Shown here: in pieces, positions 14,841-53,284 of the stretch
Layout of the letters: each line of letters begins with the position of its first letter
Position numbering within the stretch: the stretch's first letter is position 1
NCBI GenBank assembly: GCA_028289375.1
Contig: JANQQK010000028.1
Span: forward strand, 67,318 to 131,317
DNA from: Phycisphaerae bacterium
GTDB taxonomy: Bacteria; Planctomycetota; Phycisphaerae; UBA1845
Direction: 5' to 3'
DNA: 64,000 nt
Translations under genes and position numbers: made by a program
The notes under the pieces: generated by a model
Seen by the model: the letters and a program-made list of their open reading frames with translations, nothing else
Database searches by the model: none
Told to the model about the DNA's origin: nothing

Positions 14841-14914
14841 TGGGCGATAAGGGACTCGAACCCCCGACCTCACGGGTGTGATCCGTGCGCTCTAGCCAGC
14901 TGAGCTAATCGCCC
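14841..14914 (-). tRNA. tRNA-Val (anticodon CAC)
   Basis: The reverse complement folds as a 74-nt cloverleaf. Acceptor GGGCGAT/ATCGCCC, D-arm GCTC/GAGC, anticodon stem CACGG/CCGTG with loop AUCACAC, T-arm GGGGG-TTCGAGT-CCCTT. CCA is not encoded. Confidence 0.9.
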
Positions 14915-23594: not shown

Positions 23595-24482
23595 TCAGCC
23601 TGCAAGCGCGGTTTGTAGACTGGCGAAATCGATCAGGTCGACGTCGTTGTCTGCATCGAAATCGACGGGGCTGCATTCCGGTGGGGCTTCGTCGTTTGGG
23701 GCGCTGACGCAGGACGTGAAGCAGGCGTAGTCGAACAGGTCCAGGTCGCCATCTCCGTCGCAGTCGCCTGGAGCGCCTGCCGCATCGATGAGCACATCGT
23801 CGACGTACCACTTATCCGAGAAGCCAATGAACGGTCCCCACGGGGTGAACCGGACCATGAGGAAGTCGCCGTAGCCGTCTGCGGGAAGTTCATGCTCGTG
23901 GTGGTCGAACGTGCTGTCGGAGACGCCATCGGAGATGATGTCCTGCAGGATGCGCCATTGGAATGCGTTTGAATCGAAGTACTCGACACAAAGGCGTTTT
24001 CCAGATTCGACGCCGCGGTGGTTGGTCCAGTAGGAGATGGTGGTTGGGGAGTCGGCGGTCAGCATGATGGTGCGCATGGTGTCGTATTCGTTGAGTTGTG
24101 CGGAGCGGGTGGGGCTTGGTTCGATGCCCCCGACGGTGCTTGAGGTTATGCCGCTGATTTGGCCTCGATAGGTAGCGGGACTGGCTGGTGTGACGGTTCG
24201 GCGTCCGGTTCTGTCTGCGCGGTGGACGCGGAACCCCGGTGCGCGGAGGTTGTGAGGGTAGAGGATGATGCGTTGGTTGGATTGGCCGATGATGGCGTCG
24301 AATGACCATGGGGATGCATGGTCTGTGGGCAATGCGATTTCGAGCATGACGTGGTCATCGGTACGGGGGAGTTGGCTGAGCCTGTCGCGGGCCATGTCTT
24401 GGGCGGTGGCGGACGATGTGCACAGGGCGATGACGGTAATGAGTTGGATGCGTGATGATTGGCTTGGATTTGGCGTGTGCAT
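23595..24482 (-). CDS. secreted protein with C-terminal dockerin-like double Asp-loop module
   Basis: ATG 24482 after AAAGGAAA. Signal peptide MHTPNPSQSSRIQLITVIALCTSSATA. C-terminus GDCDGDGDLDLFDYACF...DFDADNDVDLIDFASLQTALAG. Confidence 0.7.
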   Translation of the reverse strand: MHTPNPSQSSRIQLITVIALCTSSATAQDMARDRLSQLPRTDDHVMLEIALPTDHASPWSFDAIIGQSNQRIILYPHNLRAPGFRVHRADRTGRRTVTPASPATYRGQISGITSSTVGGIEPSPTRSAQLNEYDTMRTIMLTADSPTTISYWTNHRGVESGKRLCVEYFDSNAFQWRILQDIISDGVSDSTFDHHEHELPADGYGDFLMVRFTPWGPFIGFSDKWYVDDVLIDAAGAPGDCDGDGDLDLFDYACFTSCVSAPNDEAPPECSPVDFDADNDVDLIDFASLQTALAG

Positions 24483-24649
24483 GGTCGGATTTCCTTTGAA
24501 TCCCATCCGACCTTCCTGCCACTATCGCGAGCGGCGTGGGGGAACTCAACCTTGTCGCCTTGCTTCTGTTACGTCTGCAGGTACTGGCCGGTTTTCTTCC
24601 ATTGTCGTCTGATCTTGACTTGTGCGGGGGTAGATCGTACACTTCGGGT

Positions 24650-24703
24650 ATGAGTGATAAGCACGTCAACGCAGCGACGTTTTGGTGGTGGCCCGGGTTA
24701 TAG
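24650..24703 (+). CDS. trpL: candidate trp leader peptide MSDKHVNAATFWWWPGL
   Basis: 17-codon ORF with TGG TGG TGG at 24683-24691, located 128 nt upstream of trpE and followed by alternative hairpins and a terminator. No strong SD. Confidence 0.65.
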   Translation: MSDKHVNAATFWWWPGL

Positions 24704-24830
24704 GGTGGGCCACGCGCGTTTTCGTGCGATCATGAACACAGATGGACCCACCTCCGAGTTGATCGGACGTGGGTTTTTTCGTTGTTTGGCCAAATCCCAC
24801 CGATCAGGCGGAGGTTGATCGGAGCAGGAG
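24683..24830 (+). promoter_or_regulatory. trp attenuator RNA: 1:2, 2:3 (antiterminator) and 3:4 (terminator) helices, plus a hairpin overlapping the trpE SD
   Basis: 1:2 is 24688-24694 with 24707-24713. 2:3 is 24703-24709 with 24747-24753. 3:4 is 24746-24757 with 24763-24774. CCGATCA/TGATCGG at 24800-24822 touches GGAG 24821-24824. Confidence 0.6.
24746..24779 (+). terminator. intrinsic terminator of the trp leader
   Basis: ACCCACCTCCGA-GTTGA-TCGGACGTGGGT (11 of 12 positions pair) is followed by TTTTTT, 52 nt before the trpE ATG. Confidence 0.7.
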
Positions 24831-26213
24831 ATGGCCACTTTTTTTGACATTCCGGCGGACCTGGACACACCGGTCTCGGCGTTTTTGAAGCTTGGGCCGC
24901 TCAGCCCGCGTTTTCTGCTTGAATCGGTGGTAAATGGGGAATCGGTGGGGCGGTATTCGATCGTGGGTTTCGGTGCGTGCGACCGTATTCGCATCGACCG
25001 CGGTGGCGTCCATCGCAACGGGGAGAAGCTCCAGGACATATCCGACGCTGCGTCCGTCCTTGCAGGGTTGCGGGGCGCGCTTGAATCGGCACCGCGACTT
25101 GGGCCGGCGCCGCCTGATGTACCGTTTGTGGGCGGGCTTGTTGGATATTCGTCGTTTGAGCTGGCGCACCATCTCGAGGGATTGTCGATTCGGGGGGCGA
25201 ATGATGTTGATCTGTTGGCGGAGTATGTCGCACCGCGTTCGCTGCTCATTTTTGACCATACAACGCTGAGTATTGCGCTGCTGCATGCGGGTTCGGAAAG
25301 CGAGCATGCGTCGCTGCGTCGGGATGTGCTCGATCTGCTGCGTGGTCCGATTCCGAAGATCAAGACGGCGGGGGCGTTCGGCGTGGCAGAACCGAGTTTT
25401 GATCGGGCCGGTTTTGAGGATGCCGTTGCGGATGTGAAGGAGTTGATTCGCGCGGGCGAGGTGTATCAGCTCGTGCTGTCGACGCAGTTCCGACGGTCTT
25501 GCACGCTGCCGCCGATTCAGGTGTATCGAGCGTTGCGTCATCTCAATCCGTCGCCGTACATGTATTTGTTGAAGATGGATGAGCGGACGGTGGTCGGGTC
25601 TTCGCCGGAGGCGTTGGTGACACTCAATGGGCGTTCGGCGTCACTGCGACCGATTGCGGGGACGAGGCCTCGAGGCCGGGATGCTGCGGAAGATGCTGCT
25701 TTTGAGCATGATCTTCGTGATGATCCGAAGGAGATCGCGGAGCACATCATGCTGGTTGATCTGGCGCGGAACGATGTTGGACGGGTCGCGACACCGGGCA
25801 CGGTCAAAGTTGATCCGTATCAGACGGTCGAGCGGTACAGCCATGTCATGCACCTTGTGAGCGGTGTGAATGCGACGGTCGACGATTCGTTTGATGCGTT
25901 TGACTTGTTTGCAGCCACTTTTCCTGCGGGGACCGTCTCGGGTGCTCCGAAGATTCGTGCGATGGAACACATTTCGCGTTTGGAACCGGTTCCGCGTGGG
26001 CCGTATGCGGGCACCGTCGGGTACTTCGGACATGGTGACACGATGGATCAGGCGATCACGATTCGGACTCTGTTTTTCGAGCAGGACACGTGCGTGTATC
26101 AGGCGGGTGCGGGCATCGTGGCTGACAGTGTTCCGTCGAACGAGCATCAGGAAGTGTTGGCGAAGAGCGCGATCATGCAGGCGGCGTTGGAGCTGGCGGG
26201 AGGGTTGGAATGA
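24831..26213 (+). CDS. trpE: anthranilate synthase component I
   Basis: 460 aa. LNPSPYMYLL, GAGIVADSVP and overall chorismate-binding fold. ATGA overlap with trpG. Confidence 0.92.
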   Translation: MATFFDIPADLDTPVSAFLKLGPLSPRFLLESVVNGESVGRYSIVGFGACDRIRIDRGGVHRNGEKLQDISDAASVLAGLRGALESAPRLGPAPPDVPFVGGLVGYSSFELAHHLEGLSIRGANDVDLLAEYVAPRSLLIFDHTTLSIALLHAGSESEHASLRRDVLDLLRGPIPKIKTAGAFGVAEPSFDRAGFEDAVADVKELIRAGEVYQLVLSTQFRRSCTLPPIQVYRALRHLNPSPYMYLLKMDERTVVGSSPEALVTLNGRSASLRPIAGTRPRGRDAAEDAAFEHDLRDDPKEIAEHIMLVDLARNDVGRVATPGTVKVDPYQTVERYSHVMHLVSGVNATVDDSFDAFDLFAATFPAGTVSGAPKIRAMEHISRLEPVPRGPYAGTVGYFGHGDTMDQAITIRTLFFEQDTCVYQAGAGIVADSVPSNEHQEVLAKSAIMQAALELAGGLE

Positions 26214-26803
26214 CCACACGTGTGTTGCTTATCGATAACTATGATTCGTTCACGTTCAACCTGGTGCAGGCGTTTCGGATACTTGGTGCGGAGACGATCG
26301 TGCGTCGGAGCGATCAGATTCAGATTGACGATGTTGCGGCGGTTGAGCCGTCGCATCTGGTGATTTCGCCTGGGCCTGGGCGGCCTGAGGACGCTCATCA
26401 GTCGATGCCGTTGATTGCGTCGATGGCTGGGACGTTGCCGGTACTGGGCGTTTGCCTCGGCCATCAGGCGCTGGGTGCGGTTTTCGGTGCGACGGTTTCC
26501 CGGGCGGAGCATCTGATGCATGGGAAGTCGTCGATGATCTATCATGACTCGGGCACGATCTTTGCGGGGCTTCCCAATCCGTTTCCGGCTGGTCGTTACC
26601 ACTCGCTGTGCGTGCATCCTGATGACCTGCCGGATTGTTTCGCGGTGTCGGCGTACACGTCGGACGGGACGGTTATGGGCATTCGTCATCGTGAGTACCC
26701 GGCTGAGGGGATTCAGTTCCACCCTGAGAGCATTATGACGCCGGACGGGAACAGGCTGCTTGAGAATTTCCTGCGGCAGGTGATGGTTGGGGTTGGGACA
26801 TGA
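26210..26803 (+). CDS. trpG: anthranilate synthase component II (glutamine amidotransferase)
   Basis: LLIDNYDSFTFNLVQ, GVCLGHQALG, GIQFHPES triad motifs. Confidence 0.92.
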   Translation: MTTRVLLIDNYDSFTFNLVQAFRILGAETIVRRSDQIQIDDVAAVEPSHLVISPGPGRPEDAHQSMPLIASMAGTLPVLGVCLGHQALGAVFGATVSRAEHLMHGKSSMIYHDSGTIFAGLPNPFPAGRYHSLCVHPDDLPDCFAVSAYTSDGTVMGIRHREYPAEGIQFHPESIMTPDGNRLLENFLRQVMVGVGT

Positions 26804-27819
26804 ATCGGTTAATCGAGAAGCTGATCGCGGGAGAGGACCTGTCTGCGGACGAGGCGTCGGACTTGGTGTCGGCGATGATACGCGACGATGCTGATGCGGT
26901 TCATGTTGGTGCGGCGTTGACGGCGTTGCGTGCGAAGGGTGAAACGGCGGACGAGTTGCGTGGGTTTGCGCGGACGATGCTGGGGCATGCTGTTTCTGTT
27001 CCGTTTGATTGCGGCGATGCGGTGGACATCGTTGGGACCGGCGGGGATGGGTCGAACAGCCTCAATCTATCGACGGGATCGGCGCTTCTGGCTGCGGTGT
27101 GCGGTGTTCCCGTGGTCAAGCATGGCAACCGTGCTGTTTCGGGGCGGTCGGGAAGTGCGGATGTTCTTGAGGCCTTGGGGTTTGCGATTCCGTCGTCGCC
27201 GGTTGAGGCGGGTGCGCAGTTGGGTGCAGCGGGATTCACGTTTCTTTATGCACCGGATTACCATCCGGCGTTGGGGGCGTTGAAGGAGATTCGTCGCCGG
27301 CTGGGGGTGCGGACGATTTTCAATATTCTTGGTCCGCTTCTGAATCCGGCCAAGCCGCCTTACGCGGTGATTGGTGCACCGAGGCGTGACATTGCGTCGT
27401 TGATGGCGGACGCGTTGTCGAGCATGGGTGTTCGGCGTGCGTTTGTTGTCCATGGGGCAGATGATTGGGACGAGCCGACACCGCTTGGGCCGTTTTCGAT
27501 TCTGGATGTTCGCGACGGTGGTGTGACGACGTTGGTTCGCGATCCTGCTGACTTCGGGATTTCGCGGTGCGTGGCTGAGGACTTAGCGGGTGGTGATCCG
27601 GATCACAATGCCGATGAATTGCGGATGGTCTTTGAGGGTCGCAGGAATGCGCATCGCGATGCGTTGTCGATTGGGGCTGCGCTGGCGCTGGAAGTGAGTG
27701 GGCGGGTCGGTGGTCTCGCTGAGGGGCTTGAGGTTGCCGGGGATGCGTTGGATTCGGGTCGGGCGGTCGCATTGCTCGACCGCGTGATCATGTTTGAGGG
27801 AGCGCACGGCGATGGATGA
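26800..27819 (+). CDS. trpD: anthranilate phosphoribosyltransferase
   Basis: DIVGTGGDGSNSLNLSTGSALLAAVCGVPVVKHGNRAVSGRSGSADVLEALG. Confidence 0.92.
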   Translation: MNRLIEKLIAGEDLSADEASDLVSAMIRDDADAVHVGAALTALRAKGETADELRGFARTMLGHAVSVPFDCGDAVDIVGTGGDGSNSLNLSTGSALLAAVCGVPVVKHGNRAVSGRSGSADVLEALGFAIPSSPVEAGAQLGAAGFTFLYAPDYHPALGALKEIRRRLGVRTIFNILGPLLNPAKPPYAVIGAPRRDIASLMADALSSMGVRRAFVVHGADDWDEPTPLGPFSILDVRDGGVTTLVRDPADFGISRCVAEDLAGGDPDHNADELRMVFEGRRNAHRDALSIGAALALEVSGRVGGLAEGLEVAGDALDSGRAVALLDRVIMFEGAHGDG

Positions 27820-28648
27820 ACAGAACTTCCTTGAGCGGATGGCGTCGCTGAGTCGCCAACGGGCGGCTGCGATCGCGGATGATCGGATACGTGCGCAATT
27901 GCGACAGCGGGTTGTGGTGCAGGCGTTGCACAAGGTGAATCTGTCCGCGGCTGGCTTTGACATTATGGCTGAGGTGAAGCGACGTTCGCCGGCGCGTGGA
28001 GTTCTTGCAGAGGGTGACGCTGAGGCGGTTGGGCGGGCGCGCGCTTATGTCGCGGGCGGGGCATTTTCGATCTCGGTGTTGACCGAGCCGGCGGAGTTCG
28101 GGGGATCGCTGTCGGACCTTGAGATGGTCGCGTCGGCGGTTGATTGCCCTGTGATGCGGAAGGACTTTCTGGTTGATCCGGTGCAATTGCTGGAGGCGCG
28201 GGCGTATGGTGCGTCCGGTGCGCTGCTGATTGTTCGCATGCTCTCTTCGGACGTTATTGACGCCATGGTGGATGCTGCCTGTGAGCTTGGCTTGTTCCTC
28301 GTCTTTGAGATCTTCGGGACTGAGGATGTGGGTGAACTGGAGCGTGCGTTGTCGCTGTGTGAGCGATCGGGTGTTGTGGCGTTTTCGGGGATTAACTGTC
28401 GTGATCTGACGACGCTTGACGTTGATGCGGGTCGTCATGCGGAGCTTTTTTCGTGTGTGCCGAGTGACCGGCCGATCATTGCTGAAAGTGGGGTTGGAAG
28501 TGCTGATGATGCTGCTCGGCTTGCGGGGTTGGGCTATCGTGCGGCGCTTGTTGGGACGTCGCTCATGATGGCTGCTGATCCGAGAACGACGCTTGCGGGT
28601 TATCTGAAGGCGGGTCGTGTTGCGGCATTTCGGGAGTCGCCGGCATGA
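27812..28648 (+). CDS. trpC: indole-3-glycerol phosphate synthase
   Basis: MAEVKRRSPARGVL, FLVDPVQLLEARAYGASGALLI. ATG 27812 overlaps the trpD stop (ATGGATGA). An alternative TTG lies at 27794. Confidence 0.88.
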   Translation: MDEQNFLERMASLSRQRAAAIADDRIRAQLRQRVVVQALHKVNLSAAGFDIMAEVKRRSPARGVLAEGDAEAVGRARAYVAGGAFSISVLTEPAEFGGSLSDLEMVASAVDCPVMRKDFLVDPVQLLEARAYGASGALLIVRMLSSDVIDAMVDAACELGLFLVFEIFGTEDVGELERALSLCERSGVVAFSGINCRDLTTLDVDAGRHAELFSCVPSDRPIIAESGVGSADDAARLAGLGYRAALVGTSLMMAADPRTTLAGYLKAGRVAAFRESPA

Positions 28649-29280
28649 ATCGGACGCGGATCAAGATATGCGGGGTGACGACTGTGGAGGTGATCGACGC
28701 GGCGATTGATGCCGGAGTCGATGCGCTTGGGTTTGTGTTTGCTGAATCGCCGAGGGCTGTGACTGCTGGTGAGGCGGCGAAACTTGCAGAGTCGGTCCCG
28801 CCGTATGTGTCGCGCGTGGCTGTTTTCTTTCAACCGCGGCGTGAGGATGTCCAGCGGACATTGGCGGTGTTTCCTGCCGACGTTGTTCAGGCGGAACCTG
28901 TCGGTGGGCTTGATTCATCCATTCAGTTGATGCCTGTTGTTCATGACGGGCCCGACGCGGTGGAGCTGATCGAGGGCGATGTTGATCCTGGCGGGTCGCT
29001 TTTGTTTGAGGCGTCCGGGCGGGGTGGTCAGGGAAGGATGCCGTCGTGGGGCCGGGCTGCGAGGATTGCTGCACGGCGACGACTTGTCCTGGCGGGTGGT
29101 CTCACGCCGGAAAATGTCGGTGAGGCGATTCGCACGGTTCGGCCTTTTGCGGTGGATGTGAGTTCGGGGGTTGAGTCGTCGTTGGGGGTCAAGGACGCGG
29201 ATCTGATACATGAGTTTGTGGGTGCGGTGCATCGAGCGGATCTGTTTGCGCACCACGCCACGTTCAGGGAGCCACTATGA
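28645..29280 (+). CDS. trpF: phosphoribosylanthranilate isomerase
   Basis: RIKICGVTT start, LAGGLTPENV, FAVDVSSGVE. ATGA overlaps on both sides. Confidence 0.88.
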   Translation: MNRTRIKICGVTTVEVIDAAIDAGVDALGFVFAESPRAVTAGEAAKLAESVPPYVSRVAVFFQPRREDVQRTLAVFPADVVQAEPVGGLDSSIQLMPVVHDGPDAVELIEGDVDPGGSLLFEASGRGGQGRMPSWGRAARIAARRRLVLAGGLTPENVGEAIRTVRPFAVDVSSGVESSLGVKDADLIHEFVGAVHRADLFAHHATFREPL

Positions 29281-30512
29281 CCACGCAGATGTCTGATCAT
29301 TCTGAAGCACGTCTTGACGACCTGCTGGCGGGGCGGCTGCCGGATGGAACGGGTCGCTTTGGGCCATTCGGTGGGCGATTTGTGCCGGAGACACTGATGA
29401 GCGCGTTGTCGCGTCTTGAAGTGCGCGCCCGGGCTGCGTTTGCTGATGGTGACTTTTGCAGGCAACTGTCCGTCGAGCTTCGGGATTGGGTGGGACGTCC
29501 GACGGCGTTGACGCCTGCGCATGGGTTGAGTCGGCGGTGGGGCGCCACCGTTGTTCTCAAGCGAGAGGATCTTGCGCACACCGGTGCGCACAAGATCAAC
29601 AACGCTCTTGGGCAGGCGATGCTGGCGAAGTGGTCTGGTGCCCGGGAGGTGATTGCCGAGACGGGCGCTGGTCAGCATGGCGTCGCGACGGCTGCTGCGT
29701 GTGCGCGCGTTGGTCTGCCGTGCACGGTTTACATGGGAGCGGTGGATGCGAAGCGTCAGGCGCCGAATGTTGATCGGATGCATCGGCTTGGTGCGTCGGT
29801 GGTTGAGGTTGCGTCTGGCGATGCAACGCTTCGGGCGGCGGTCAACGAGGCGATGCGTCGTTGGGTCACGGATCCTGAACAGACGTATTATCTGCTTGGT
29901 TCGGCGATCGGTCCGCATCCTTATCCGTGGTTGGTGCGGGAGTTTCACAAGGTGATCGGGGAGGAGGCTCGGCAGCAGATGCTCGATCGATTTGACCGGC
30001 TGCCTGATGGGGTGGTTGCGTGTGTTGGCGGCGGCTCGAATGCGATCGGGTTGTTTCATGGTTTTCTGGGTGACGCCGGTGTTCGGCTTGTTGGTGCTGA
30101 GGCCGGCGGGTCGGGTGCGGGGCGGAATGCTGCTTCTGTCGTTCATGGTGTTCCGGGTGTTTTGCACGGTTGCCATACGCTGCTTTTGCAGGATGGTGAG
30201 GGGCAGGTGCTTGAGACGGAGTCGGTGTCGGCAGGGCTGGACTATCCGGCGGTGGGGCCTGAGCACGCGTTTCTTCATTCGATTGGCAGGACGGAGTATT
30301 GTGCGGTTTCTGACGACGAAGCGCTCGCGGCGTTTGACGAGTGCTGCTCGTGCGAGGGGATCATTCCTGCGCTTGAGACGGCACATGCGTTCGCGGCGGC
30401 GAAGCGGATGGCCCTTGAGTCGCCGGGCATCACGGTGTTGATCGGATGCTCGGGACGGGGTGACAAAGATTTGCCAAGCCTGCGTGAAAAACGGAGGGAA
30501 TCGCATGACTGA
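29277..30512 (+). CDS. trpB: tryptophan synthase beta chain
   Basis: GRFGPFGGRFVPETLM, LKREDLAHTGAHKINN, GGGSNAIGLF. Confidence 0.93.
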   Translation: MTTQMSDHSEARLDDLLAGRLPDGTGRFGPFGGRFVPETLMSALSRLEVRARAAFADGDFCRQLSVELRDWVGRPTALTPAHGLSRRWGATVVLKREDLAHTGAHKINNALGQAMLAKWSGAREVIAETGAGQHGVATAAACARVGLPCTVYMGAVDAKRQAPNVDRMHRLGASVVEVASGDATLRAAVNEAMRRWVTDPEQTYYLLGSAIGPHPYPWLVREFHKVIGEEARQQMLDRFDRLPDGVVACVGGGSNAIGLFHGFLGDAGVRLVGAEAGGSGAGRNAASVVHGVPGVLHGCHTLLLQDGEGQVLETESVSAGLDYPAVGPEHAFLHSIGRTEYCAVSDDEALAAFDECCSCEGIIPALETAHAFAAAKRMALESPGITVLIGCSGRGDKDLPSLREKRRESHD

Positions 30513-31320
30513 CGTCACAACGACGCGCGGTGCTGAGCGGATTACGGCGGCCATCCGAATGGCGAGGCGGGAGCGTGGTTTTGCGCTGGCGCCGTTTCTG
30601 ACGGCGGGTTATCCGAATGTTGAAGCGTGCGGTGCGTTGCTTGGTGAGATTGCCGCGAATGCGGACATTGTTGAGTTGGGGATTCCGTTCTCCGATCCGA
30701 TTGCTGATGGGCCGACGATTCAGCATGCAAGCCGTGTTGCGCTTGATGGTGGTGTGACGATCGATCGTGCGCTGGAGATGCTTCGCTCGGCGAGCGTCGG
30801 GATTCCGGTGATCGCCATGACGTATCTCAACCCGTTGCTGACGTATGGGTTTGCGCGCTTTGCGGAGGCTGCGGCGTCGGTTGGCATCGATGGGATCATC
30901 GTGCCCGATCTGCCGGTCGAAGAGAGTGTCGCGTTGCGGGAAGCGGTTGCGGAATTCGGGTTGTGCGTCATATCGATGGTGACACCGGCGACGCCTGATG
31001 ATCGCATGAAACAAATTTGCGCGCAGGCGAAGGGGTTTGTCTATGCCACGACGATCTGCGGCGTGACGGGGGCCGCGAATGCGATCGATGATGGCGTTGG
31101 GGATTTTGTGAAGCGTATTGCGCGTCACACCGATGTGCCGATCCTGGCTGGTTTCGGTATACGGTCCGCCGATGACGCCGAGCGTCTGGCCGATCACTGC
31201 GATGGGGTCATCATCGGGAGCGCGTTGATCGAATCGATCGATCGTGGAGACAGTCCGGCGGCGTTCCTGCGTGGGGTGCGGCCTGCTGTGGCGAATAGGA
31301 AAGGGAGTGTGCGATCATGA
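30505..31320 (+). CDS. trpA: tryptophan synthase alpha chain
   Basis: ATG 30505 after GGAGGG, overlapping the trpB stop (ATGACTGA). LAPFLTAGYPN, ELGIPFSDPIADGPTIQ, GFGIRS. Confidence 0.9.
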   Translation: MTDVTTTRGAERITAAIRMARRERGFALAPFLTAGYPNVEACGALLGEIAANADIVELGIPFSDPIADGPTIQHASRVALDGGVTIDRALEMLRSASVGIPVIAMTYLNPLLTYGFARFAEAAASVGIDGIIVPDLPVEESVALREAVAEFGLCVISMVTPATPDDRMKQICAQAKGFVYATTICGVTGAANAIDDGVGDFVKRIARHTDVPILAGFGIRSADDAERLADHCDGVIIGSALIESIDRGDSPAAFLRGVRPAVANRKGSVRS

Positions 31321-32363
31321 TGATCGTTCTGAGGGCGGATTGCAGCCTGAAGGAGAAGGCGGAGATCACGCGCATTCTTGAGGCTGGCGAGATCAACATC
31401 AATGTGACGGAAACCGGCGGCAGTACCGCCTTTATACTGATGCCAACGCCGGACGACGACATTGTGGCGTCTTTGGAGCGTCATGGGGGTGTTGCGGAAG
31501 TTCGTCGGGCGACGCCTTCGTGCCAGCTCGTAACGCGTGACCATCGCGCAGAGCCGACGCGGTTTCATGTCGGCCATGCGCTGGTTGGTCCGGATACGCT
31601 GACGGTGATTGCGGGGCCTTGCTCTGTCGAAACACGAACGCAGATGATGGAGATTGCCGAGTGTGTTGCCGATGCGGGTGCGACGATGCTGCGCGGCGGG
31701 GCGTTCAAGCCGCGGACAAGCCCGTACAGTTTTCAGGGATTGGGGGAGCGGGGGCTTGAGTTGCTGGCGGATGCGGGTGGTCGGTTCAAGCTGCCGACGG
31801 TTACGGAAGTGATGGCGCCGGAGCAGGCTGCATTGATCGCGCAATACGCTGATGTTCTGCAGGTCGGTGCGCGGAACATGCAGAACTTCAGTTTGCTGCA
31901 GGCTGTTGGTCAGCAGCATCGGCCGATTCTGCTCAAGAGAAGCCCGATGGCATCGATCGAGGAATTGCTTTGCGCGGCTGAGTATATCGCGGCGGCGGGT
32001 AATCAGCGGATCATGCTGTGTGAGCGCGGTATTCGCACATTTGAGCGTGCGACGCGAAGTACGCTTGATATTTCGGCTGTTCCGGTTCTGAAGCAGCTGT
32101 CTCACCTTCCGGTGATCGTGGATCCGAGTCATGCTGTTGGTAAGCGGGAGTGGGTGCCACCGCTTGCGAAGTGTTCGGTGGCTTGCGGGGCCGACGGGTT
32201 GATGATTGAGGTTCACCCGAATCCTGAGGAAGCGATGAGCGACGGTCGGCAAAGTCTGACGATGGATCAGTTCTCACGCATGATGGTTGATGTGCGGCGT
32301 CTTGCCGGGGCTGAAGGACGTCAGGATCATGCTGAAGGGTCGCAGCAGTCCGTGCGTGCGTAG
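31317..32363 (+). CDS. aroF: 3-deoxy-7-phosphoheptulonate (DAHP) synthase, type I-beta with N-terminal regulatory-like domain
   Basis: GPCSVETRTQMMEIA..., LRGGAFKPRTSPYSFQGLG, VIVDPSHA motifs of KDO8PS-like DAHP synthases. An N-terminal extension of about 80 aa. ATGA overlap with trpA. Confidence 0.88.
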   Translation: MMIVLRADCSLKEKAEITRILEAGEININVTETGGSTAFILMPTPDDDIVASLERHGGVAEVRRATPSCQLVTRDHRAEPTRFHVGHALVGPDTLTVIAGPCSVETRTQMMEIAECVADAGATMLRGGAFKPRTSPYSFQGLGERGLELLADAGGRFKLPTVTEVMAPEQAALIAQYADVLQVGARNMQNFSLLQAVGQQHRPILLKRSPMASIEELLCAAEYIAAAGNQRIMLCERGIRTFERATRSTLDISAVPVLKQLSHLPVIVDPSHAVGKREWVPPLAKCSVACGADGLMIEVHPNPEEAMSDGRQSLTMDQFSRMMVDVRRLAGAEGRQDHAEGSQQSVRA

Positions 32364-33122
32364 TTTCGACGATTGGTTTTGGATCTTATTGCTGGTGAAC
32401 GGGGAATTGGTGTTGCCAGCAGGTGGTCCGTAGAGTCGGTATCTTGGTTCGCTGCACCTGATCGGAGTTTTCGACGCGTGGTGATGCTCGTCGGGATGGT
32501 GGCTCGGAGTTTCGGGTTGCCATTTGCGTATTGTCAACGTGCGGCGTTGGTCGTAGGTGGTGAGATCGTGCGCTACCCGTCGATGCAAGCGGGTTCGAAC
32601 CCATCCCCGTGACAGCATGGCTTGCAACCACGTCGACGATTCGCGAATCCCCCGTTCTTCCTGCGAAACGACACTTGGACATGTCCCCAAGTTTCCATTT
32701 CAGATTGCCGGCCGTCGGGGGGCTTGCGGCCTGTTCCAATCGGGGTTGGTGCTTGGCGGTTCATGGGAAGGTTCTGGGCTGGTGATTGCGTTGTGTGCGT
32801 TGTTGACGAACGATGGGTTGGGTCGCGGTGTGGCGAGTTTCGTTTCCCTTTGAATGAGGCGAGCGCGGTGACCGGCAACGGTCGATACGCGTTGAACAGG
32901 CATTTGCCAAACCGGGCGCGTAAGCGGCGGTGACGGTGTCTGATGGCCGAAAAACGCAGCGTTGTCGGACGCGACAGCGGGACGTGGTTCGACTAACGTA
33001 CAGTCGGTGATGAACGCGGCAGGATGGCGGCGATTTTCCGGCTGTTTGACGGTGATCGGGTGGTCTGACAGGCGTGGCGTTTTGCTTGTCGCTCCGGTGG
33101 GTGCTCTACGATACGGGACTTG

Positions 33123-34979
33123 ATGATGAAGACACGCATGGCCCTGTTTTGCTTGGTGGTGTTGTCGAACATTCCCTTCGAGAGGGGGGGCAATTCGTGC
33201 ATGGCTGCGACGAATCAGGGCGGCAAGATCGTGATCTACCAGGTGTTCACCCGACTCTTCGGAAACCGCAACACGACCAACAAGGAGTGGGGCACTGTTG
33301 AGGAGAACGGCGTCGGGAAGTTCGGTGATTTCACCGACGAGGCATTGAAGGGGATCAGGGAATTCGGGACGACTCATATCTGGTACACGGGGGTGCCGCA
33401 CCATGCCGTCATTCGTGACTATACGGCTTACGGGATTTCGAACGATGATCCCGATGTGGTCAAAGGCCGAGCCGGGTCACCGTATGCGGTGAAGGACTAT
33501 TACAATGTGAATCCCGACCTTGCGGTCGATCCGGCCAAGCGTCTGGAAGAGTTCAAGGCGTTGGTGCAGCGTACACATCGACATGGCATGAAGGTCATGA
33601 TCGACATCGTCCCCAACCACGTTGCGCGTGGCTATCAATCCATCAGCAGTCCGGCGGGTGTGCGCGATTTTGGGGCGGACGATGACACCAGTGTCGCTTA
33701 TCGTCGAGATAATAACTTCTACTATATTCCGGGCGATTCATTCCGCGTTCCGGACGGCAGTGTTCCTCTCGGCGGGGAGGCTCATCCACTTGCGGATGGC
33801 AAGTTTGATGAGCATCCGGCGAAGTGGACGGGCAATGGGTCGCGTCTTGCCCAGCCGAATGCGCACGACTGGTATGAGACGGTCAAGGTGAACTATGGTG
33901 TGCGTCCGGACGGTACGCATGACTTCCCTGCTCTGCCTGAGACTCTGCGCGGTGCTTCCTTCCAAGAACATGCCGCGTTCTGGAGCGGGAAGGATGTTCC
34001 GGATTCGTGGATCAAGTTCCGCGAGATTGCACTGTACTGGTTGGATTTCGGGGTGGACGGTTTTCGTTTCGACATGGCTGAGATGGTGCCCGTGGCGTTC
34101 TGGAGCTATCTCAATTCCTCGATCAAGATGAAGGACCCCAATGCGTTGTGCCTGGCAGAGATCTACAATCGCGATTTGTACCGCAGCTATATTCAGCTCG
34201 GTCTGATGGATGTGTTGTACGACAAGGTTGACTTCTACGACACGATGAAGCGGATCATGCAGGGCCATGCGCCTGCGTCCGATCTGATTCCCATCATTGA
34301 CGCTTTGCGCGATGTTGATTCGCACATGCTTCACTTTCTGGAAAATCACGATGAGCAGCGTATTGCCAGCCCGGAGTTCGCCGGTGATGCGCGTGTTGGT
34401 ATGCCGGGTATGACTGTCTCCGCGCTGGTGGGGAAGGGGCCAAGCATGCTCTATTTTGCCCAGGCATTGGGTGAACGGGCGGATCGGAATGCTGGATTTG
34501 GTTCTGCGTCGCGGACCAGCATTTTTGACTACTGGGGACTTGAGACGCTGAACCGCTGGGCCAACGGTGGGAAATACGATGGCGCCCTTCTCTCAGGCGG
34601 TGAGAAGGCGCTTCGTCGACACTACACGGCACTGCTGTCGTTCAGTGCAAAGAGCCAGGCCATGAAGGGTGGGTATGCTGATCTGCACCGGTACAACCTG
34701 TCCAATGGGGAGAACTATACCGAGAGGCACTTTTCGTTTGCGCGATGGTCGGGTGGTTCGAGGGTGGTGGTCTTGGTTGGTTTTGATCGGGACAATGGGG
34801 CCCAGATTGATCTCCGGATTCCTGAAGCGCTTGTTGCTGAATGGGGGCTGGAAGATGGGACATATGGCCTTAAGGACGTTTTCGATGGGTCGTCAAGACG
34901 GCTTGTGGTTGAGCATGGTCGTGGCGTGATCCGTACGGTGCTCAAGCCTTTGGAATCGCAGGTGTACGTGTTTGAGTGA
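33123..34979 (+). CDS. GH13 alpha-amylase-family glycosidase, exported
   Basis: Hydrophobic N-terminus MMKTRMALFCLVVLS. KIVIYQVFTRLFGN, MIDIVPNHVA, DGFRFDMAEMV, FLENHDEQR (GH13 regions I, II, IV). Confidence 0.88.
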   Translation: MMKTRMALFCLVVLSNIPFERGGNSCMAATNQGGKIVIYQVFTRLFGNRNTTNKEWGTVEENGVGKFGDFTDEALKGIREFGTTHIWYTGVPHHAVIRDYTAYGISNDDPDVVKGRAGSPYAVKDYYNVNPDLAVDPAKRLEEFKALVQRTHRHGMKVMIDIVPNHVARGYQSISSPAGVRDFGADDDTSVAYRRDNNFYYIPGDSFRVPDGSVPLGGEAHPLADGKFDEHPAKWTGNGSRLAQPNAHDWYETVKVNYGVRPDGTHDFPALPETLRGASFQEHAAFWSGKDVPDSWIKFREIALYWLDFGVDGFRFDMAEMVPVAFWSYLNSSIKMKDPNALCLAEIYNRDLYRSYIQLGLMDVLYDKVDFYDTMKRIMQGHAPASDLIPIIDALRDVDSHMLHFLENHDEQRIASPEFAGDARVGMPGMTVSALVGKGPSMLYFAQALGERADRNAGFGSASRTSIFDYWGLETLNRWANGGKYDGALLSGGEKALRRHYTALLSFSAKSQAMKGGYADLHRYNLSNGENYTERHFSFARWSGGSRVVVLVGFDRDNGAQIDLRIPEALVAEWGLEDGTYGLKDVFDGSSRRLVVEHGRGVIRTVLKPLESQVYVFE

Positions 34980-35248
34980 TGATGGCGCGGACTTTGTCTT
35001 CCAGGGGATATGTGCTTGTGCTGGATTTGTTCGCAGGCCGGACTATGGGATGAGCGAATCCACTGGTGTGGGCTTGGAGACTCTGCATCGGTTATCAAGC
35101 TGAACTGTGTACGAAACTGGACGGTCTTCTCTTTCAGGGACGAAGAATCGATGTTGTCGTTTGTATGTGACTGCTGTGGGGCTCGTCGTGCTGTCTCCAT
35201 GGGTGCGCGGCTGCGGAGTGGTTGGACCGTCGGCGGAAGGGGGTCAGC

Positions 35249-36481
35249 ATGACCGAAGAAGCGGGAAGCCCGCAGCAGAAGTTGATCTTCTCGACGCCTC
35301 ACGATGTTCGGAAGGCGATCCTGATCACATTCATCGCGTTCCTGTTCTGTGGCTTTCAGGCTGCGATCTACGGGATGACGACGGTTCCGGTTTCGAAGTT
35401 TTTCGGGACGCTGCCTGAGACGATTGTGAAGTATGATTCATTCGGGATGTGGGGGCAGATCCTCGCGATGGGGACGGGGGGTTTCGTTATCGCCAGGATT
35501 CGGGGTAAGAACACGTTGCTCCTGGCCGGTCTGATGATGCTTGTGGCGTCCACGCTGATTGCGCTGTTCCCGGTGCTCCCGGTTTATATTTCGATGTCGT
35601 TTCTCTGCAATATGGCGATCGGGTTCGCGCTGGTGTCGTGTTACTACATGACGATGGGGACGGTCCGCAAGGAAGGGGAAAGCGAAGGGAAGCTGGCGAT
35701 CCTGAATGTATTTTTCAGTGCGGGCTTTATGATCAGTCCGATCATCAATGGCTTTGTGATTGACTCCTGGTCCTGGCGGGCAGTGTTCGTGTTGATTGCG
35801 GCCATGTTCGCTGCGTTCATTGCCATTCTGCTTTTCTTCAATATCAGCGAAATGGCGGATGATGCTCTGAAGGAAGAGAAGAAGAAGGAGCAGGGTGAGG
35901 CGACGGCGAGCTTCATGTCTGTTCCTCTCGTGTTGACGGCTGTTGCGTTTTTCCTGTTCGTCTATGTCGAGCAGATCATGAACAACTTGAATCAGCCGCG
36001 GATGCAGGTGGACCTGGGTTTCGACATCAAGGTCGTGGGTGCTCTGGTGACGACGTATGCGCTGTCGCAGATGGTCGGTCGATTGGTGTTTGGCAAGTTT
36101 CTGCTTCCTCGGGTGAAGGTGCACAAGTACATCATCGTTTCGTCGCTGCTGTTTGGCGCGTTCATTTTCATTTTCGTGAACCTCACGAGCCTGTCCACGG
36201 TGATCCCCTTTATGGTTCTGCTGGGGCTGGCTAATTCGTGTATCTATCCGTCCATCGTGGGCTACGGTTTGGATCAGATCGGGCATGCCAGTCCGAAGGC
36301 GACGTCGTTCATCATCACGTGCGGGTCGATCGGTATTCCTGTGGGAACGTTCATGTCCGGGTTGATCGGTGAGAATTTCGGCAGGACCAAGGCAATGCTG
36401 GTTGGCCCGGTGTTGCTGGTTGTGGTCGTGCTTCTCATCTTTACGGTGAGGCGTATGGCGGTGAAGAGGGAAGTTGCGTAA
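35249..36481 (+). CDS. MFS transporter (probable sugar/maltodextrin-related by context)
   Basis: ATG 35249 after AAGGGGG. About 12 hydrophobic helices throughout. Substrate is inferred from context only. Confidence 0.8.
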   Translation: MTEEAGSPQQKLIFSTPHDVRKAILITFIAFLFCGFQAAIYGMTTVPVSKFFGTLPETIVKYDSFGMWGQILAMGTGGFVIARIRGKNTLLLAGLMMLVASTLIALFPVLPVYISMSFLCNMAIGFALVSCYYMTMGTVRKEGESEGKLAILNVFFSAGFMISPIINGFVIDSWSWRAVFVLIAAMFAAFIAILLFFNISEMADDALKEEKKKEQGEATASFMSVPLVLTAVAFFLFVYVEQIMNNLNQPRMQVDLGFDIKVVGALVTTYALSQMVGRLVFGKFLLPRVKVHKYIIVSSLLFGAFIFIFVNLTSLSTVIPFMVLLGLANSCIYPSIVGYGLDQIGHASPKATSFIITCGSIGIPVGTFMSGLIGENFGRTKAMLVGPVLLVVVVLLIFTVRRMAVKREVA

Positions 36482-36511
36482 CGGGTCGGGAACAGTTGAA
36501 CGGGCTTGGGC

Positions 36512-39229
36512 ATGAAGATCAACTTGAGCATTCATTACGATACGACGTTTGGACAGACGATTTGCGTGTGTGGGTCGTGGAAGTCGTTGGGGAACTGGGA
36601 AGTATCGAACGCGGCGCGTCTGTCCTATGAGAAGAATGGTCGCTGGTCGCTTTCGCTCGATGTTGCCGAAGATCTGCAGGATCTGGAATACAAGTATCTG
36701 CTTGTTGAAGAGGATGGTCGGTATTCGTGGGAATGGGGTGACGTCCGATCTGTCAAGGTCGGAGGGTATGATGTTCCCGTCATACATCTGCATGATCAGT
36801 GGCGTGCTCCCGCGAGTCATGAAAGGGTCATGTTCAACTCGTGCTTTCGGGATGTCCTTATGAGGCCTGACATGGGTCTTAAAGGGGATCATGCGAATGC
36901 ACAGTCGTGCGTGGAATTCAGAATAGCGGTTCCGCGGATTGGGCCTGGGTTACAGATCTGTGTCGTGGGCAATCAGGAGGGATTGGGTGACTGGAAGAAG
37001 GGTGAGCCGCTTCTTCTTGGGTGTGGCGATGATTTTCCGGTATGGTCCGGCTCTGTTGATCGCGGTGCGCTCTCTTTTCCGGTCACCTACAAGTACGGTA
37101 TCTACGATCCTCGAAAGGGAGCTGTTGTCGGCGTGGAGGAGGGGGACGAGCGCCGAATTGAATCGCGCTCTGACGATGATGCCGAAGGCCGTGTTGTTCA
37201 AACTGACGAGTCTTTTCGATTTCCGCAGGGTGACTGGAAGGGTGCGGGGGTGGCTGTTCCAGTGTTCTCGCTACGGAGTGAAAAGAGTGCGGGGATCGGG
37301 GATTTTGGAGACCTGATGGACTTCGTCGGCTGGGCCGGTGAAGTCGGCATGAAGATGGTCCAGGTGCTTCCGCTCAACGATACGATTGCGACGCATGGGT
37401 GGCTTGATTCGTATCCTTACAAGTCCATCTCGGTCATGGCGCTTCATCCGATGTATCTGAACGTGCACCTTCTCGGGGAGTTGCGGGACAAGAAGCTGAG
37501 GGATGGGCTACTGGCGGAGCTTGAGGCGTTGAATGCTGCTCGGCATGTCCAGTATCCGGATGTGCATCGCGTCAAGTCGCGTTACTTCAAGTGCATTTTC
37601 GATCAGGAGGGGGATCGTGTGCTTAAGAGCGCTGCGTACAAGGCGTTCTTTGCAAAGAACCGGGATTGGCTGATTCCGTATGCTGCGTATTCCTACTTGC
37701 GCGATAAGGAAAGGACGTCAGACTTCAGGGAGTGGGGAAAGTACAGCACATATGACGAGTCGGCTATCGGGCGATTGTGCAGCGCGAAGTCCGAGGCGTG
37801 GGATGACATCGCGATACATCTGTTTCTTCAGTTTCATCTCGACAAGCAGTTGAGGGCGGTGACGGAATACGCGCGGAAGAATGGCATCGTGCTGAAGGGG
37901 GACATCCCGATCGGGATCAGTCCGAACAGTGTGGAAGCGTGGACGGAACCGCACTTGTTTCACCTGGATGCGCAGGCGGGTGCTCCGCCAGATGATCTTG
38001 CGGTCAAGGGGCAGAACTGGGGGTTCCCGACGTACAACTGGGAGGCGATGGCGAAAGAGGACTACGCATGGTGGAAGCGCCGGCTGCGTCATATGGGGTC
38101 CTATTTCGATGCGTACAGGATCGATCACATACTCGGTTTCTTTCGGATTTGGGAGATTCCTTGTGACTCGGTTGACGGCGTGCTGGGGCATTTCAACGCG
38201 GCGCTTCCGCTGAGCGTGGAGGAGATTGAGCGGTTCGGTATTTCGTTCGATGAGGATCGGATGGCGAAACCGTACATCCGTGAGCATCTGCTTCGCGATC
38301 TTTTTGGTGACGCGACAGAGTCGGTCAAGTCTGAGTTTCTCGAGCAGTCTGATTCCGGGCATTACCGGATGAAAGGGCCGTTTGATTCGCAAGTGAAGGT
38401 GAATCGGCATTTCCTTGATGGCATCGAGGAGGAGGAATTGAGCGATGGCGATCGGCGGATCAGGGATGGGCTCTTCGCTCTGATGGCGAACGTCTTGTTT
38501 GTGCAGACGGGCGAGAATGAATGGGCGCCGAGAATTACGCTGCATCTGACGTCATCGTATGCGGAGTTGGACGAAGCGACACGCGGGCAGCTTGATGCAC
38601 TGTACGTTCACTTCTTCTACGAGCGGCATGACGACTTCTGGTATCAGAAAGCGCTGGAGAAGCTGCCATCGATTATCTCTGCCAGCGACATGCTTGTGTG
38701 TGGCGAAGATCTTGGAATGGTTCCGGGTTGTGTTGCGCCTGTGATGGAGCAGTTGGATATTCTGAGTCTGGAAATCCAGCGCATGCCGAAGGATCCGAAC
38801 GTCAAGTACGCCGATCCGGCGAACGCTCCGTATCTTTCGGTGTGTACGACGTCGACGCATGATATGCCGACGATCAGGGGATGGTGGGAGCTGGAGCGGG
38901 ATTCGATGCGAACTTTCTTTTCCGACGAGCTTGGGAATCAGGGGGATCCGCCCTACTTTGCCGAGCCGTGGGTCTGCAGTCAGATGATCTCGCAGCATTT
39001 GCGGTCGCCGGCGATGTGGACGGTTTTCCCGATCCAGGACTTGCTGGCGATGGATGGCGATCTGCGATGGGATGAGACCCACGAGGAGCAAATCAACGAG
39101 CCGAGCAATGTGCGGCATCGATGGAAGTACAGGATGCATCAGAGTATCGAGGCGTTGAAGGGTGCCACGGATTTCAACGCGATGCTCCGGGCGATGATTG
39201 ATGACGCCGGCAGGAATGCCGCGTACTAG
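36512..39229 (+). CDS. malQ: 4-alpha-glucanotransferase (GH77) with two N-terminal CBM20-like modules (DPE2-like architecture)
   Basis: Two CBM20-like units (ICVCGSWKSLGNWE...EYKYLL; ICVVGNQEGLGDWK...TYKYGI). GH77 core YPYKSISVMALHPMY, GDIPIGISPNSVEAW, GAPPDDLAVKGQNWGFPTYNW, CGEDLGMVP. Confidence 0.88.
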   Translation: MKINLSIHYDTTFGQTICVCGSWKSLGNWEVSNAARLSYEKNGRWSLSLDVAEDLQDLEYKYLLVEEDGRYSWEWGDVRSVKVGGYDVPVIHLHDQWRAPASHERVMFNSCFRDVLMRPDMGLKGDHANAQSCVEFRIAVPRIGPGLQICVVGNQEGLGDWKKGEPLLLGCGDDFPVWSGSVDRGALSFPVTYKYGIYDPRKGAVVGVEEGDERRIESRSDDDAEGRVVQTDESFRFPQGDWKGAGVAVPVFSLRSEKSAGIGDFGDLMDFVGWAGEVGMKMVQVLPLNDTIATHGWLDSYPYKSISVMALHPMYLNVHLLGELRDKKLRDGLLAELEALNAARHVQYPDVHRVKSRYFKCIFDQEGDRVLKSAAYKAFFAKNRDWLIPYAAYSYLRDKERTSDFREWGKYSTYDESAIGRLCSAKSEAWDDIAIHLFLQFHLDKQLRAVTEYARKNGIVLKGDIPIGISPNSVEAWTEPHLFHLDAQAGAPPDDLAVKGQNWGFPTYNWEAMAKEDYAWWKRRLRHMGSYFDAYRIDHILGFFRIWEIPCDSVDGVLGHFNAALPLSVEEIERFGISFDEDRMAKPYIREHLLRDLFGDATESVKSEFLEQSDSGHYRMKGPFDSQVKVNRHFLDGIEEEELSDGDRRIRDGLFALMANVLFVQTGENEWAPRITLHLTSSYAELDEATRGQLDALYVHFFYERHDDFWYQKALEKLPSIISASDMLVCGEDLGMVPGCVAPVMEQLDILSLEIQRMPKDPNVKYADPANAPYLSVCTTSTHDMPTIRGWWELERDSMRTFFSDELGNQGDPPYFAEPWVCSQMISQHLRSPAMWTVFPIQDLLAMDGDLRWDETHEEQINEPSNVRHRWKYRMHQSIEALKGATDFNAMLRAMIDDAGRNAAY

Positions 39230-39273
39230 CCAAGCCTTGCGATCGAATTTCGGTGCGCGTGGAGTTTTGAGTG

Positions 39274-41037: not shown

Positions 41038-41178
41038 TCTCGGTGGGGTGGGGGGCGTCCGGGTGACCTTGGTTTCGGGTCCTTTAGGCGATGAAGGGTT
41101 CGGGGCAGGGCAGGCGTGCGCAGGGCGACCTTTCGGACGCGTCTCGTGCGACATCGGGGCTTTGCGGGCTTTATTGAG

Positions 41179-41200
41179 CAGAGCGACAGCGGTCGCTGTG
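41179..41200. terminator. hairpin between convergent genes (possible bidirectional terminator)
   Basis: CAGAGCGAC-AGCG-GTCGCTGTG, 8 of 9 bp. No clear T-tract. Confidence 0.25.
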
Positions 41201-41269
41201 CGGATTGCTTGATCATCCGAGTGACGTCACTGCGACGCGGTTTGGATGTCGAGCACGGGTGAACTTGTC

Positions 41270-42964: not shown

Positions 42965-43339
42965 TTGCTTCTATTCTCGGCAGTCCAAAGGATGCAGATT
43001 ACCCGGTTCACCAATTCAAGGGCCTGAATTCGGATTCGCGAGACGCGCACAACACGGCTGCGCCCCGAGCGTGACATCGAGGCCCGATCATCGACCCAAA
43101 TCCCGCCGGGGCGATGTGCCCTGAGACAATGGGCAAGCAGTGGGAAGAACACCAGTTGCCATTCGTAGGGAAACGCGACCCGGCCCAAACTGGGGAACAT
43201 GTTGCGCGATGTCGTTCGAATTGTCCACGTTCGGGGAATGCACATTTGGCTGCGAGACGGGTCACTCGTGACACGTGGACCCGGTCCGATAGAATGCGGT
43301 CGCGGGTCGAACAACGCCCATCGAGGGCCAACCGGACAG

Positions 43340-47700: not shown

Positions 47701-47703
47701 GCC

Positions 47704-49875: not shown

Positions 49876-50071
49876 CGGCGTCGGCTTGCCGGACTGTTCG
49901 TCATCGGTCGGCGGGCAATGTCGGGATTGAGGTTCGGGGACGCTATACAACAGCCCGCGTTCGTGTATCTTCATGGGTAGGACCGCAGACGGCGGGATCC
50001 TAGGTCTTCCGGGGATCACCCGATGAGGGTTCCGGGAGCACACGTCGCCCAAAAATCTGGGGAATCGGGTC

Positions 50072-52928: not shown

Positions 52929-53284
52929 TGGAGGCGGGGGGAATCGAACCCCCGTCCCGCGACGGCTCAAGGAAAGCTTCTACGTGCGTAGTCGATCATT
53001 TGAGTCTCGCAATCCCCGACGCCGAACGACAGGCTTCGGGAACCGCCAGCCCGATCAAGCTCCTCGCCGACGTGCGACCAGACAAAGCACGTCAGCCAGC
53101 CCGCTGATTGACGTCCGAACGAGATAGCAGGCGTCTCCCGCCGGACGGGCTACCGCTTTTTAGGCAGCCATGCGCAACTGAGAGTTGGCATATAAAGTTT
53201 GTGCCCGTTGTTTAACGAGGCCAACGGACAACCTCGGCACGCCACTTCCCCATCGTCTCGCCCGGTCGAGCCCAAATCGCCCCC
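52929..53284 (-). ncRNA. ssrA: tmRNA (SsrA), tag ANSQLRMAA
   Basis: 5' GGGGGCGAUUUGGGCUCGAC... pairs with 3' ...CGCCUCCA, including G3:U. T-arm GGGGGUUCGAUUCCCCC. GCGUGCCGAGG...GUUGGCCUCGUUAAA pseudoknot region. Tag ORF GCC AAC TCT CAG TTG CGC ATG GCT GCC TAA at 53189-53160. Confidence 0.93.

Follow-up and report, generated by a model that had tools for sequence, protein, structure and literature searches.

A probable leader-peptide attenuator of the E. coli trpL type upstream of a Phycisphaerae trp operon and at related trp loci

The trp operon and its surroundings

The window, that is, the whole stretch of 64,000 nucleotides that was analysed, has a G+C content of 58.8% and carries on its forward strand a complete set of trp genes in the order trpEGDCFBA, followed by a DAHP synthase gene (24831..32363, as shown in Table 1). 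The ORFs of this set overlap or abut, which is consistent with a single transcription unit from trpE through the DAHP synthase gene. The gene upstream (23595-24506) lies on the minus strand and is divergent, so the hairpin and T run found at 24746-24779 do not form the terminator of a preceding gene. The initial annotation judged the gene content not to be proteobacterial, and the named relatives of two proteins agree with it: those of the biotin carboxylase AccC come mostly from Planctomycetota/Phycisphaerae (~62-64% identity), with a few from Vampirovibrio or cyanobacteria, and those of TrpE include both Planctomycetota and Gemmatimonadota. From these named relatives (~60-64% identity for the two proteins), the host can be placed approximately: it is probably a Planctomycetota-like organism that branches deeply, and neither a proteobacterium nor an actinobacterium.

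The trp operon is densely flanked by genes of alpha-glucan (glycogen) metabolism, located at 975-3146 and 33120-51907 of the window. Among them are genes for a GlgB-like branching enzyme, an amylase-family protein, a 907-aa MalQ-like 4-alpha-glucanotransferase and an alpha-glucan phosphorylase, then three tandem ORFs of 723-757 aa (43199-49875), the first of which has CBM48 and alpha-amylase domains, and after these a glycosyltransferase. At the Rfam gathering score, the whole window yields only a tmRNA (52929-53284, minus strand, tag peptide ANSQLRMAA) and a tRNA, tRNA-Val(CAC) (14841-14914, minus strand).

Table 1. Positions of the genes and of the predicted regulatory features of the trp locus in the window
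Feature	Position	Strand	Basis or remark
Sigma-70-like promoter, TTGACT-17 nt-TACACT	24615..24643	+	Consensus match; conserved geometry
Putative leader ORF (trpL-like), peptide MSDKHVNAATFWWWPGL	24650..24703	+	Sequence read directly
Three tandem Trp codons, TGG TGG TGG (proposed sensing site)	24683..24691	+	Sequence
Segment 1 (GTGGCCCG), pairs with segment 2 in the untranslated leader (anti-antiterminator)	24688..24695	+	Folds
Segment 2 (GGGTGGGCCAC), from the last base of the stop codon; alternative partners segment 1 or 3	24703..24713	+	Masked folds
Segment 3 (TGG-A-CCCACCTCCGA), 3' strand of the antiterminator; terminator 5' arm is 24746-24757	24743..24757	+	Folds
Segment 4 (TCGGACGTGGGT) and T run 24774-24779, intrinsic terminator with segment 3	24763..24779	+	Folds, covariation
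Post-terminator hairpin CCGATCA/TGATCGG, loop CGGAGGT	24800..24822	+	97% of cells paired, 2 compensatory pairs, five closest relatives
trpE	24831-26213	+	Pfam Anth_synt_I_N + Chorismate_bind
trpG	26210-26803	+	ORF list, Pfam
trpD	26800-27819	+	ORF list, Pfam
trpC	27794-28648	+	ORF list, Pfam
trpF	28645-29280	+	ORF list, Pfam
trpB	29277-30512	+	ORF list, Pfam
trpA	30460-31320	+	ORF list, Pfam
DAHP synthase gene	31317-32363	+	ORF list, Pfam

A short leader frame and its promoter

First of all, the classical arrangement of an attenuator, a short ORF in front of the operon in which codons for the controlled amino acid stand side by side, is found here. The leader frame consists of 17 codons, from ATG 24650-24652 to the stop codon TAG 24701-24703, and direct reading of the sequence confirms both this frame and the three Trp codons that had been proposed for it. 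The run of Trp codons occurs in all 13 sites of the family described below, and the Trp codon columns are invariant in two family alignments while the flanking codons differ. TGGTGGTGG alone is not rare, with two copies in the window as against 0.74 expected; the sole other copy (1495-1503, minus strand) lies antisense inside the GlgB-like gene and has no attenuator context. Since such a run is by itself not improbable in 64 kb, the case for an attenuator rests on context and conservation and not on the triplet run.

The promoter in Table 1 is the sole promoter-like site in 24000-25400. Its -10 hexamer ends 6 nt before the ATG, which makes the A of that ATG (24650), or a base close to it, the expected start of transcription. 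In 11 of the 13 sites, a -35/17/-10 pair ends 6-11 nt before the leader ATG, a placement met at 0.24% of random positions in the same loci. The absence of a Shine-Dalgarno sequence before the leader ATG, regarded by the initial annotation as its weak point, is real, and the adjoining promoter in these 11 sites probably accounts for it: the transcript is predicted to begin at the leader AUG, which would leave no room for a Shine-Dalgarno sequence. In L006, L007 and L008, an in-frame GTG stands directly before the ATG (GTGATGGT; L006 1115-1120, L007 149-154, L008 2813-2818) and exactly 7 nt after the -10 hexamer, and the true 5'-terminal start codon of these three may be GUG. Leaderless initiation is not universal in the family, since in L012 the leader ATG follows a GGAGG and no promoter match is seen, and in L133 the promoter match is weak.

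Judged from promoter geometry, we consider it likely that the leader is translated from a leaderless or nearly leaderless mRNA. There is a parallel in Deinococcus deserti, in which dRNA-seq revealed 14 putative leader peptides on leaderless transcripts, the transcription start of the trpEGD leader peptide being mapped 1 nt before the start codon (PMC4007540). The same attenuator could also work from a longer transcript that starts upstream, either by initiation independent of a Shine-Dalgarno sequence or from an upstream in-frame GTG (56-codon ORF), a version that we hold to be rather improbable. The GTG 168 nt upstream of the window ATG does give a longer ORF, the promoter is recognised by its consensus match only, L012 uses the GGAGG that stands in front of its leader ATG, and the -10 hexamer of L009 ends as far as 11 nt before the ATG. 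The upstream in-frame extension, however, varies in both length and sequence among the relatives, and the longer transcript has to be set against a promoter geometry kept beside the start codon in most of the family and against the lack of any second promoter-like site in the region searched.

Mutually exclusive helices and the terminator

The initial annotation had claimed three helices, 1:2, 2:3 and 3:4, and all three are present in the folds. The leader region is more stably folded than dinucleotide shuffles (z = -3.5), and in the unconstrained MFE fold of 24645-24835, which contains both 1:2 and 3:4, the 1:2 helix consists of 8 bp (24688-24695 with 24706-24713); it also appears in the fold that ends before segment 4 and carries no ribosome mask. 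The 2:3 helix joins GGGTGGG (24703-24709) to CCCACCT (24747-24753) and is extended by CCA 24710-24712 with TGG 24743-24745 across the bulged A24746. The 3:4 helix pairs 24746-24757 with 24763-24774 in 11 of 12 positions, with one C/C mismatch, and has a dG of -17.5 kcal/mol. The T run of six that had been described after it does exist at 24774-24779, but its first T pairs with A24746, so that five unpaired T follow the stem. Thus an intrinsic terminator separates trpE from the leader ORF, as in classical attenuators; a consensus terminator scan detected its inner 5-bp stem only.

To mimic the ribosome, the RNA was kept unpaired as far as 15 nt beyond the start of the P-site codon, and the masked folds were made for 10 of the 13 sites on transcripts that end short of segment 4. 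When the A site holds a Trp codon, segment 3 finds its partner just past the mask in all ten (in the window, 24703-24712 with 24743-24753); when it holds the stop codon, segment 2 is covered and segment 3 is left without an upstream partner. That is to say, an antiterminator exclusive with the terminator is freed in silico by a stall at the Trp codons and covered when the ribosome reaches the stop codon. Full-length folds, which contain segment 4, give the terminator as the MFE structure for every Trp codon that is masked. For this reason, co-transcriptional truncation alone is informative, and antitermination must be kinetic, as it is in E. coli.

In an independent duplex test, the partner that best fits the terminator 5' arm begins 17 nt past the final UGG in L011 and 7-12 nt past it in the other 12 sites; most dinucleotide shuffles of the intervening sequence give a weaker partner (p 0.002 to 0.064, with 3 of the 13 values between 0.05 and 0.06). 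In the untranslated state, segment 2 is held in the 1:2 helix in the window, L006 and L008. The 1:2 helix forms also in L006, L008, L009 and L057. It is not shared by the whole family, since several other members fold 2:3 when they are untranslated and carry no mask.

The same design at other trp loci

In the comparison of relatives that the initial annotation proposed, a W-rich mini-ORF followed by a hairpin is found at 12 further trp loci, 11 of them before trpE (54-73% TrpE identity) and one before trpD. A search of 5.8 billion proteins returned only four TrpE relatives above 62% identity. All four of L006-L009 (67-73% TrpE identity) have the same layout upstream of trpE: a mini-ORF of 19 codons that ends in WWW, three codons and a stop, GGTGGGC directly after it, and then ACCCACCTCCGA-loop-TCGGAYGTGGGTTTTTT. 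Their leader peptides are otherwise unlike (MVEKRGNTLVLSRWWWFPS, MVETLNNAHALCLWWWSAS, MVKNCKIEMALRSWWWPDT and MATQPNSLNAVRRWWWPST). The WWW-X3-stop layout is kept even in L057 (WWWSTP-stop), L135 (WWWRPS-stop) and L136 (WWWRHS-stop), despite a TrpE identity of 57-61%, and in the latter two the terminator is altered to ACCCATCTCCG...GGGGATGGGT.

The remaining members have leaders of other kinds. L133, a Gemmatimonadota MAG, has WWW in a 29-codon leader and the terminator ACTCACCTCC...GGGGGTGAG; the Planctomycetota MAGs L011 and L012 have WW in a 63-codon leader and WSWPW in a 33-codon leader, respectively; L085 has a WW leader; and L021 (6135-6290) has a WWWW leader (MQNPVLLLASKAHTSSWWWWYCAHAEVDATG) that stands in front of trpD instead of trpE, from which it appears that the module serves split trp operons too. 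Segment 2 lies inside the longer leader ORF in five sites (L133, L085, L021, L012 and L011), and in the other 8 the stop codon has a fixed relation to segment 2 while other codons vary.

As for the origin of these members, the more distant ones were found by sampling TrpE relatives at ~60% identity. A scan of metagenome DNA with the pattern ACCCACCTCCG-N6-14-GTGGGTTT gave, among the matches listed, L021, L057 and L085 as useful sites; L057 and L085, being retrieved by a terminator pattern, are not independent of the terminator sequence. A TrpE scan of a genome collection reached distant loci only (56% and 41% identity), and L004 is incomplete. The leader is absent from the inspected upstream regions of L001, L002, L003 and L134; within this TrpE neighbourhood, the element is thus frequent without being universal.

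Within the family, ACCCACCTCCG is nearly invariant, being replaced by ACCCATCTCCG in L135/L136 and by ACTCACCTCCG in L133. Over the 13 sequences, 93.6% of the cells of the terminator helix are paired, with 3 compensatory pairs (CG-to-UA changes); its covariation score was reached by no shuffle, and RNAalifold gives the same helix. A covariance model built from 8 members matches each of the other 5, which were kept out of it, along the full model (E 1e-6 to 2e-10) and has a single full-length match in the window. The antiterminator core GGTGGG/CCCACC is unvarying among the five close relatives, which makes alignment covariation uninformative there, and alignment-based covariation for 2:3 and for a small hairpin at 24713-24728 was no better than in shuffles. 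Since the pairing register shifts in more distant members, the support for the antiterminator is positional and not covariational. The small hairpin, with only 60% of its cells paired, is not claimed here.

Terminators of similar sequence also occur away from trp genes. At least ~100 metagenome loci (L013-L132) have the near-identical terminator ACCCACCTCCG[A/T]CAAACCGGTGGGTTTTTTGTGCC (for example, L083 5309-5336 and L013 482-508), preceded by a TTGAC-17-TAGCA promoter and a conserved leader of ~50 nt, and followed ~45 nt downstream by a match to sRNA-Xcc1 (RF02221) and then by a gene whose product begins MST.DS.DL..TGYFLPEDSQLRLKQLR. Taken together, these parts resemble a conserved mobile-element module, which is unrelated to trp. 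In L099 (4046-4072), L064, L091, L109 and L025, a terminator of the same type (ACCCACCTCCGGCTCCGGGGTGGGTTTT) comes after a conserved region of ~130 nt with a promoter of its own, upstream of a gene that by eye resembles a multi-pass membrane transporter, possibly of the EamA type. The short ORF of this group has one Trp codon only, the covariance model of the trp family gives partial matches to it (E 6e-5), and the element may be an unrecognised attenuator or riboswitch.

A hairpin between the terminator and trpE

The post-terminator hairpin of Table 1 has a 3' arm that overlaps the trpE Shine-Dalgarno sequence GGAG (24821-24824) and may modulate the translation of trpE. Its loop CGGAGGT is invariant in the five closest relatives, and the hairpin is absent from the more distant family members inspected. 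The loop is complementary to segment 3, as ACCUCCGA/UCGGAGGU in L006-L009 and in 7 of 8 positions in the window; written as letters, the complementarity between loop and terminator 5' arm in L006-L009 is ACCTCCGA/TCGGAGGT. The terminator 5' arm also contains CACCTCC, which resembles the anti-Shine-Dalgarno sequence of 16S rRNA.

A wider reading can be built on these likenesses, namely that the sites make up a single uncatalogued family of mostly leaderless Trp attenuators, common to Planctomycetota- and Gemmatimonadota-labelled genomes, with an anti-SD-like CACCUCC in segment 3 and SD-like GGAGGUG in segments 2 and 4, to which the hairpin may add a translational layer. Taken as a whole, this reading is speculative and we think it unlikely. 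If it were true, the complementarity between loop and segment 3 could give a second, translational control beside transcription attenuation.

Proposed mechanism

From the Trp run, the terminator and the antiterminator geometry in the 13 sites, the element very probably attenuates transcription of the trp operon through a leader peptide and the ribosome that translates it, much as E. coli trpL does, and the trpL-type logic read from this locus at the outset is thereby supported. Transcription would begin at or within 1-2 bases of the leader AUG at 24650, and a ribosome would load on the leaderless 5' end. When charged tRNA-Trp is ample, the ribosome would pass the three UGG codons and reach UAG 24701, covering segment 2 (24703-24713); segment 3 would then pair with segment 4, and the hairpin with its U run (24746-24779) would release the polymerase ahead of trpE. 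Should charged tRNA-Trp run short, the ribosome would be expected to stall at the Trp codons 24683-24691, covering segment 1 and exposing segment 2, which would take segment 3 as soon as it is made; the terminator would thus be blocked, and transcription would enter trpEGDCFBA and the DAHP synthase gene, so that read-through is predicted to depend on Trp. If the leader is left untranslated, 1:2 would pair and the terminator would form.

In other phyla, the trp operon can be controlled through other means, such as the TRAP and T-box systems of B. subtilis, and a trans-acting factor of this kind (a TRAP-like protein, uncharged tRNA at a T-box or another RNA-binding regulator) might drive the switch here, with the Trp-rich ORF being incidental. 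The GGTGGG motifs do look like Trp codons, and structural reasons alone could yield them. TRAP binds about 9-11 (G/U)AG triplets that are spaced by 2-3 nt and overlap the antiterminator; 24650-24830 contains just 6 of these triplets, no more than 2 of which follow one another at the required spacing. An Rfam search of 24300-25000 with E up to 10 matched nothing save a chance lncRNA, with both the T-box and the Trp_leader (RF00513) covariance models unmatched. Moreover, every Trp run falls in frame within an ORF whose start codon lies beside a promoter, and the stop codon keeps its place relative to segment 2 in 8 sites among otherwise variable codons. All this makes a trans-acting switch very unlikely. 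Least probable of these readings, and likewise very unlikely, is that the terminated leader RNA of ~130 nt (24650-24779) acts mainly as a trans-acting sRNA or through a functional small peptide, with cis attenuation secondary: rnTrpL/peTrpL of Sinorhizobium meliloti is a precedent (PMC6614838, PMC7298713) and the anti-Shine-Dalgarno-like CACCUCC of segment 3 could pair with ribosome-binding sites, but the peptide is unconserved outside the Trp run, and a trans role would add to cis attenuation without replacing it.

Relation to known attenuators

The E. coli leader peptide ends in ...GWWRTS-stop, and its segment 1 spans the Trp codons together with the codons after them. The attenuator proposed here is like E. 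coli trpL (RF00513) in having a short ORF with tandem Trp codons, three further codons and a stop (here WWWPGL, WWWRPS and WWWRHS), four segments that in the window can form 1:2, 2:3 and 3:4, an intrinsic terminator before trpE, and a predicted race between 2:3 and the more stable 3:4 that is decided by kinetics. It differs in that no sequence or structure match to RF00513 can be detected, that 1:2 begins within the final Trp codon and draws mostly on the three C-rich codons that follow it, that segment 2 (GGUGGG) resembles Trp codons, that the host is probably Planctomycetota-like, and that the leader lacks a Shine-Dalgarno sequence and is predicted to be leaderless.

In the latter respect, it resembles D. 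deserti trpEGD, whose start codon lies 1 nt from the transcription start (here, at or 1 nt from it by prediction) and whose companion leaders likewise stand upstream of amino-acid biosynthesis genes with transcription attenuation as the proposed role; the start there was mapped by dRNA-seq and here is predicted from promoter geometry, and the phylum is another one (PMC4007540). The trp attenuators of actinobacteria (Corynebacterium, Streptomyces) share the double or triple UGG, the GC-rich terminators with U tracts and the overlapping antiterminators, but differ in lineage and sequence (PMC1262725). Mycobacterial leaderless poly-Cys ORFs, for which cysteine-responsive attenuation of operon expression is described (bioRxiv 10.1101/834739), are on that description similar as leaderless short ORFs acting as amino-acid-responsive attenuators, again with a different lineage and sequence.

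The bacteria in which leader-peptide attenuation is established are mainly Proteobacteria and Actinobacteria; for Firmicutes and Deinococcus it has been predicted. According to a survey of 2010, which itself added Firmicutes, such systems had until then been known from Proteobacteria and Actinobacteria alone (PMC2965389). In the full-text literature searched, no description of trp leader-peptide attenuation was found for Planctomycetota or Gemmatimonadota, in keeping with the early guess that this is an undescribed occurrence. As far as the sequences tell, the novelty lies in the lineage, in the 13 related sites that make up the family and in their consistent layout, which is predicted to be leaderless; the mechanism is the textbook one, unchanged.

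Significance

The finding would extend leader-peptide attenuation to Planctomycetota-like and Gemmatimonadota-labelled MAGs, in which regulation is almost unstudied. The 13 aligned examples and the working covariance model could seed an RNA family and improve the annotation of "hypothetical" mini-ORFs. A promoter that stands so consistently beside the start codon suggests that these organisms use leaderless translation, and also that leaderless initiation can supply the fast ribosome loading that attenuation needs.
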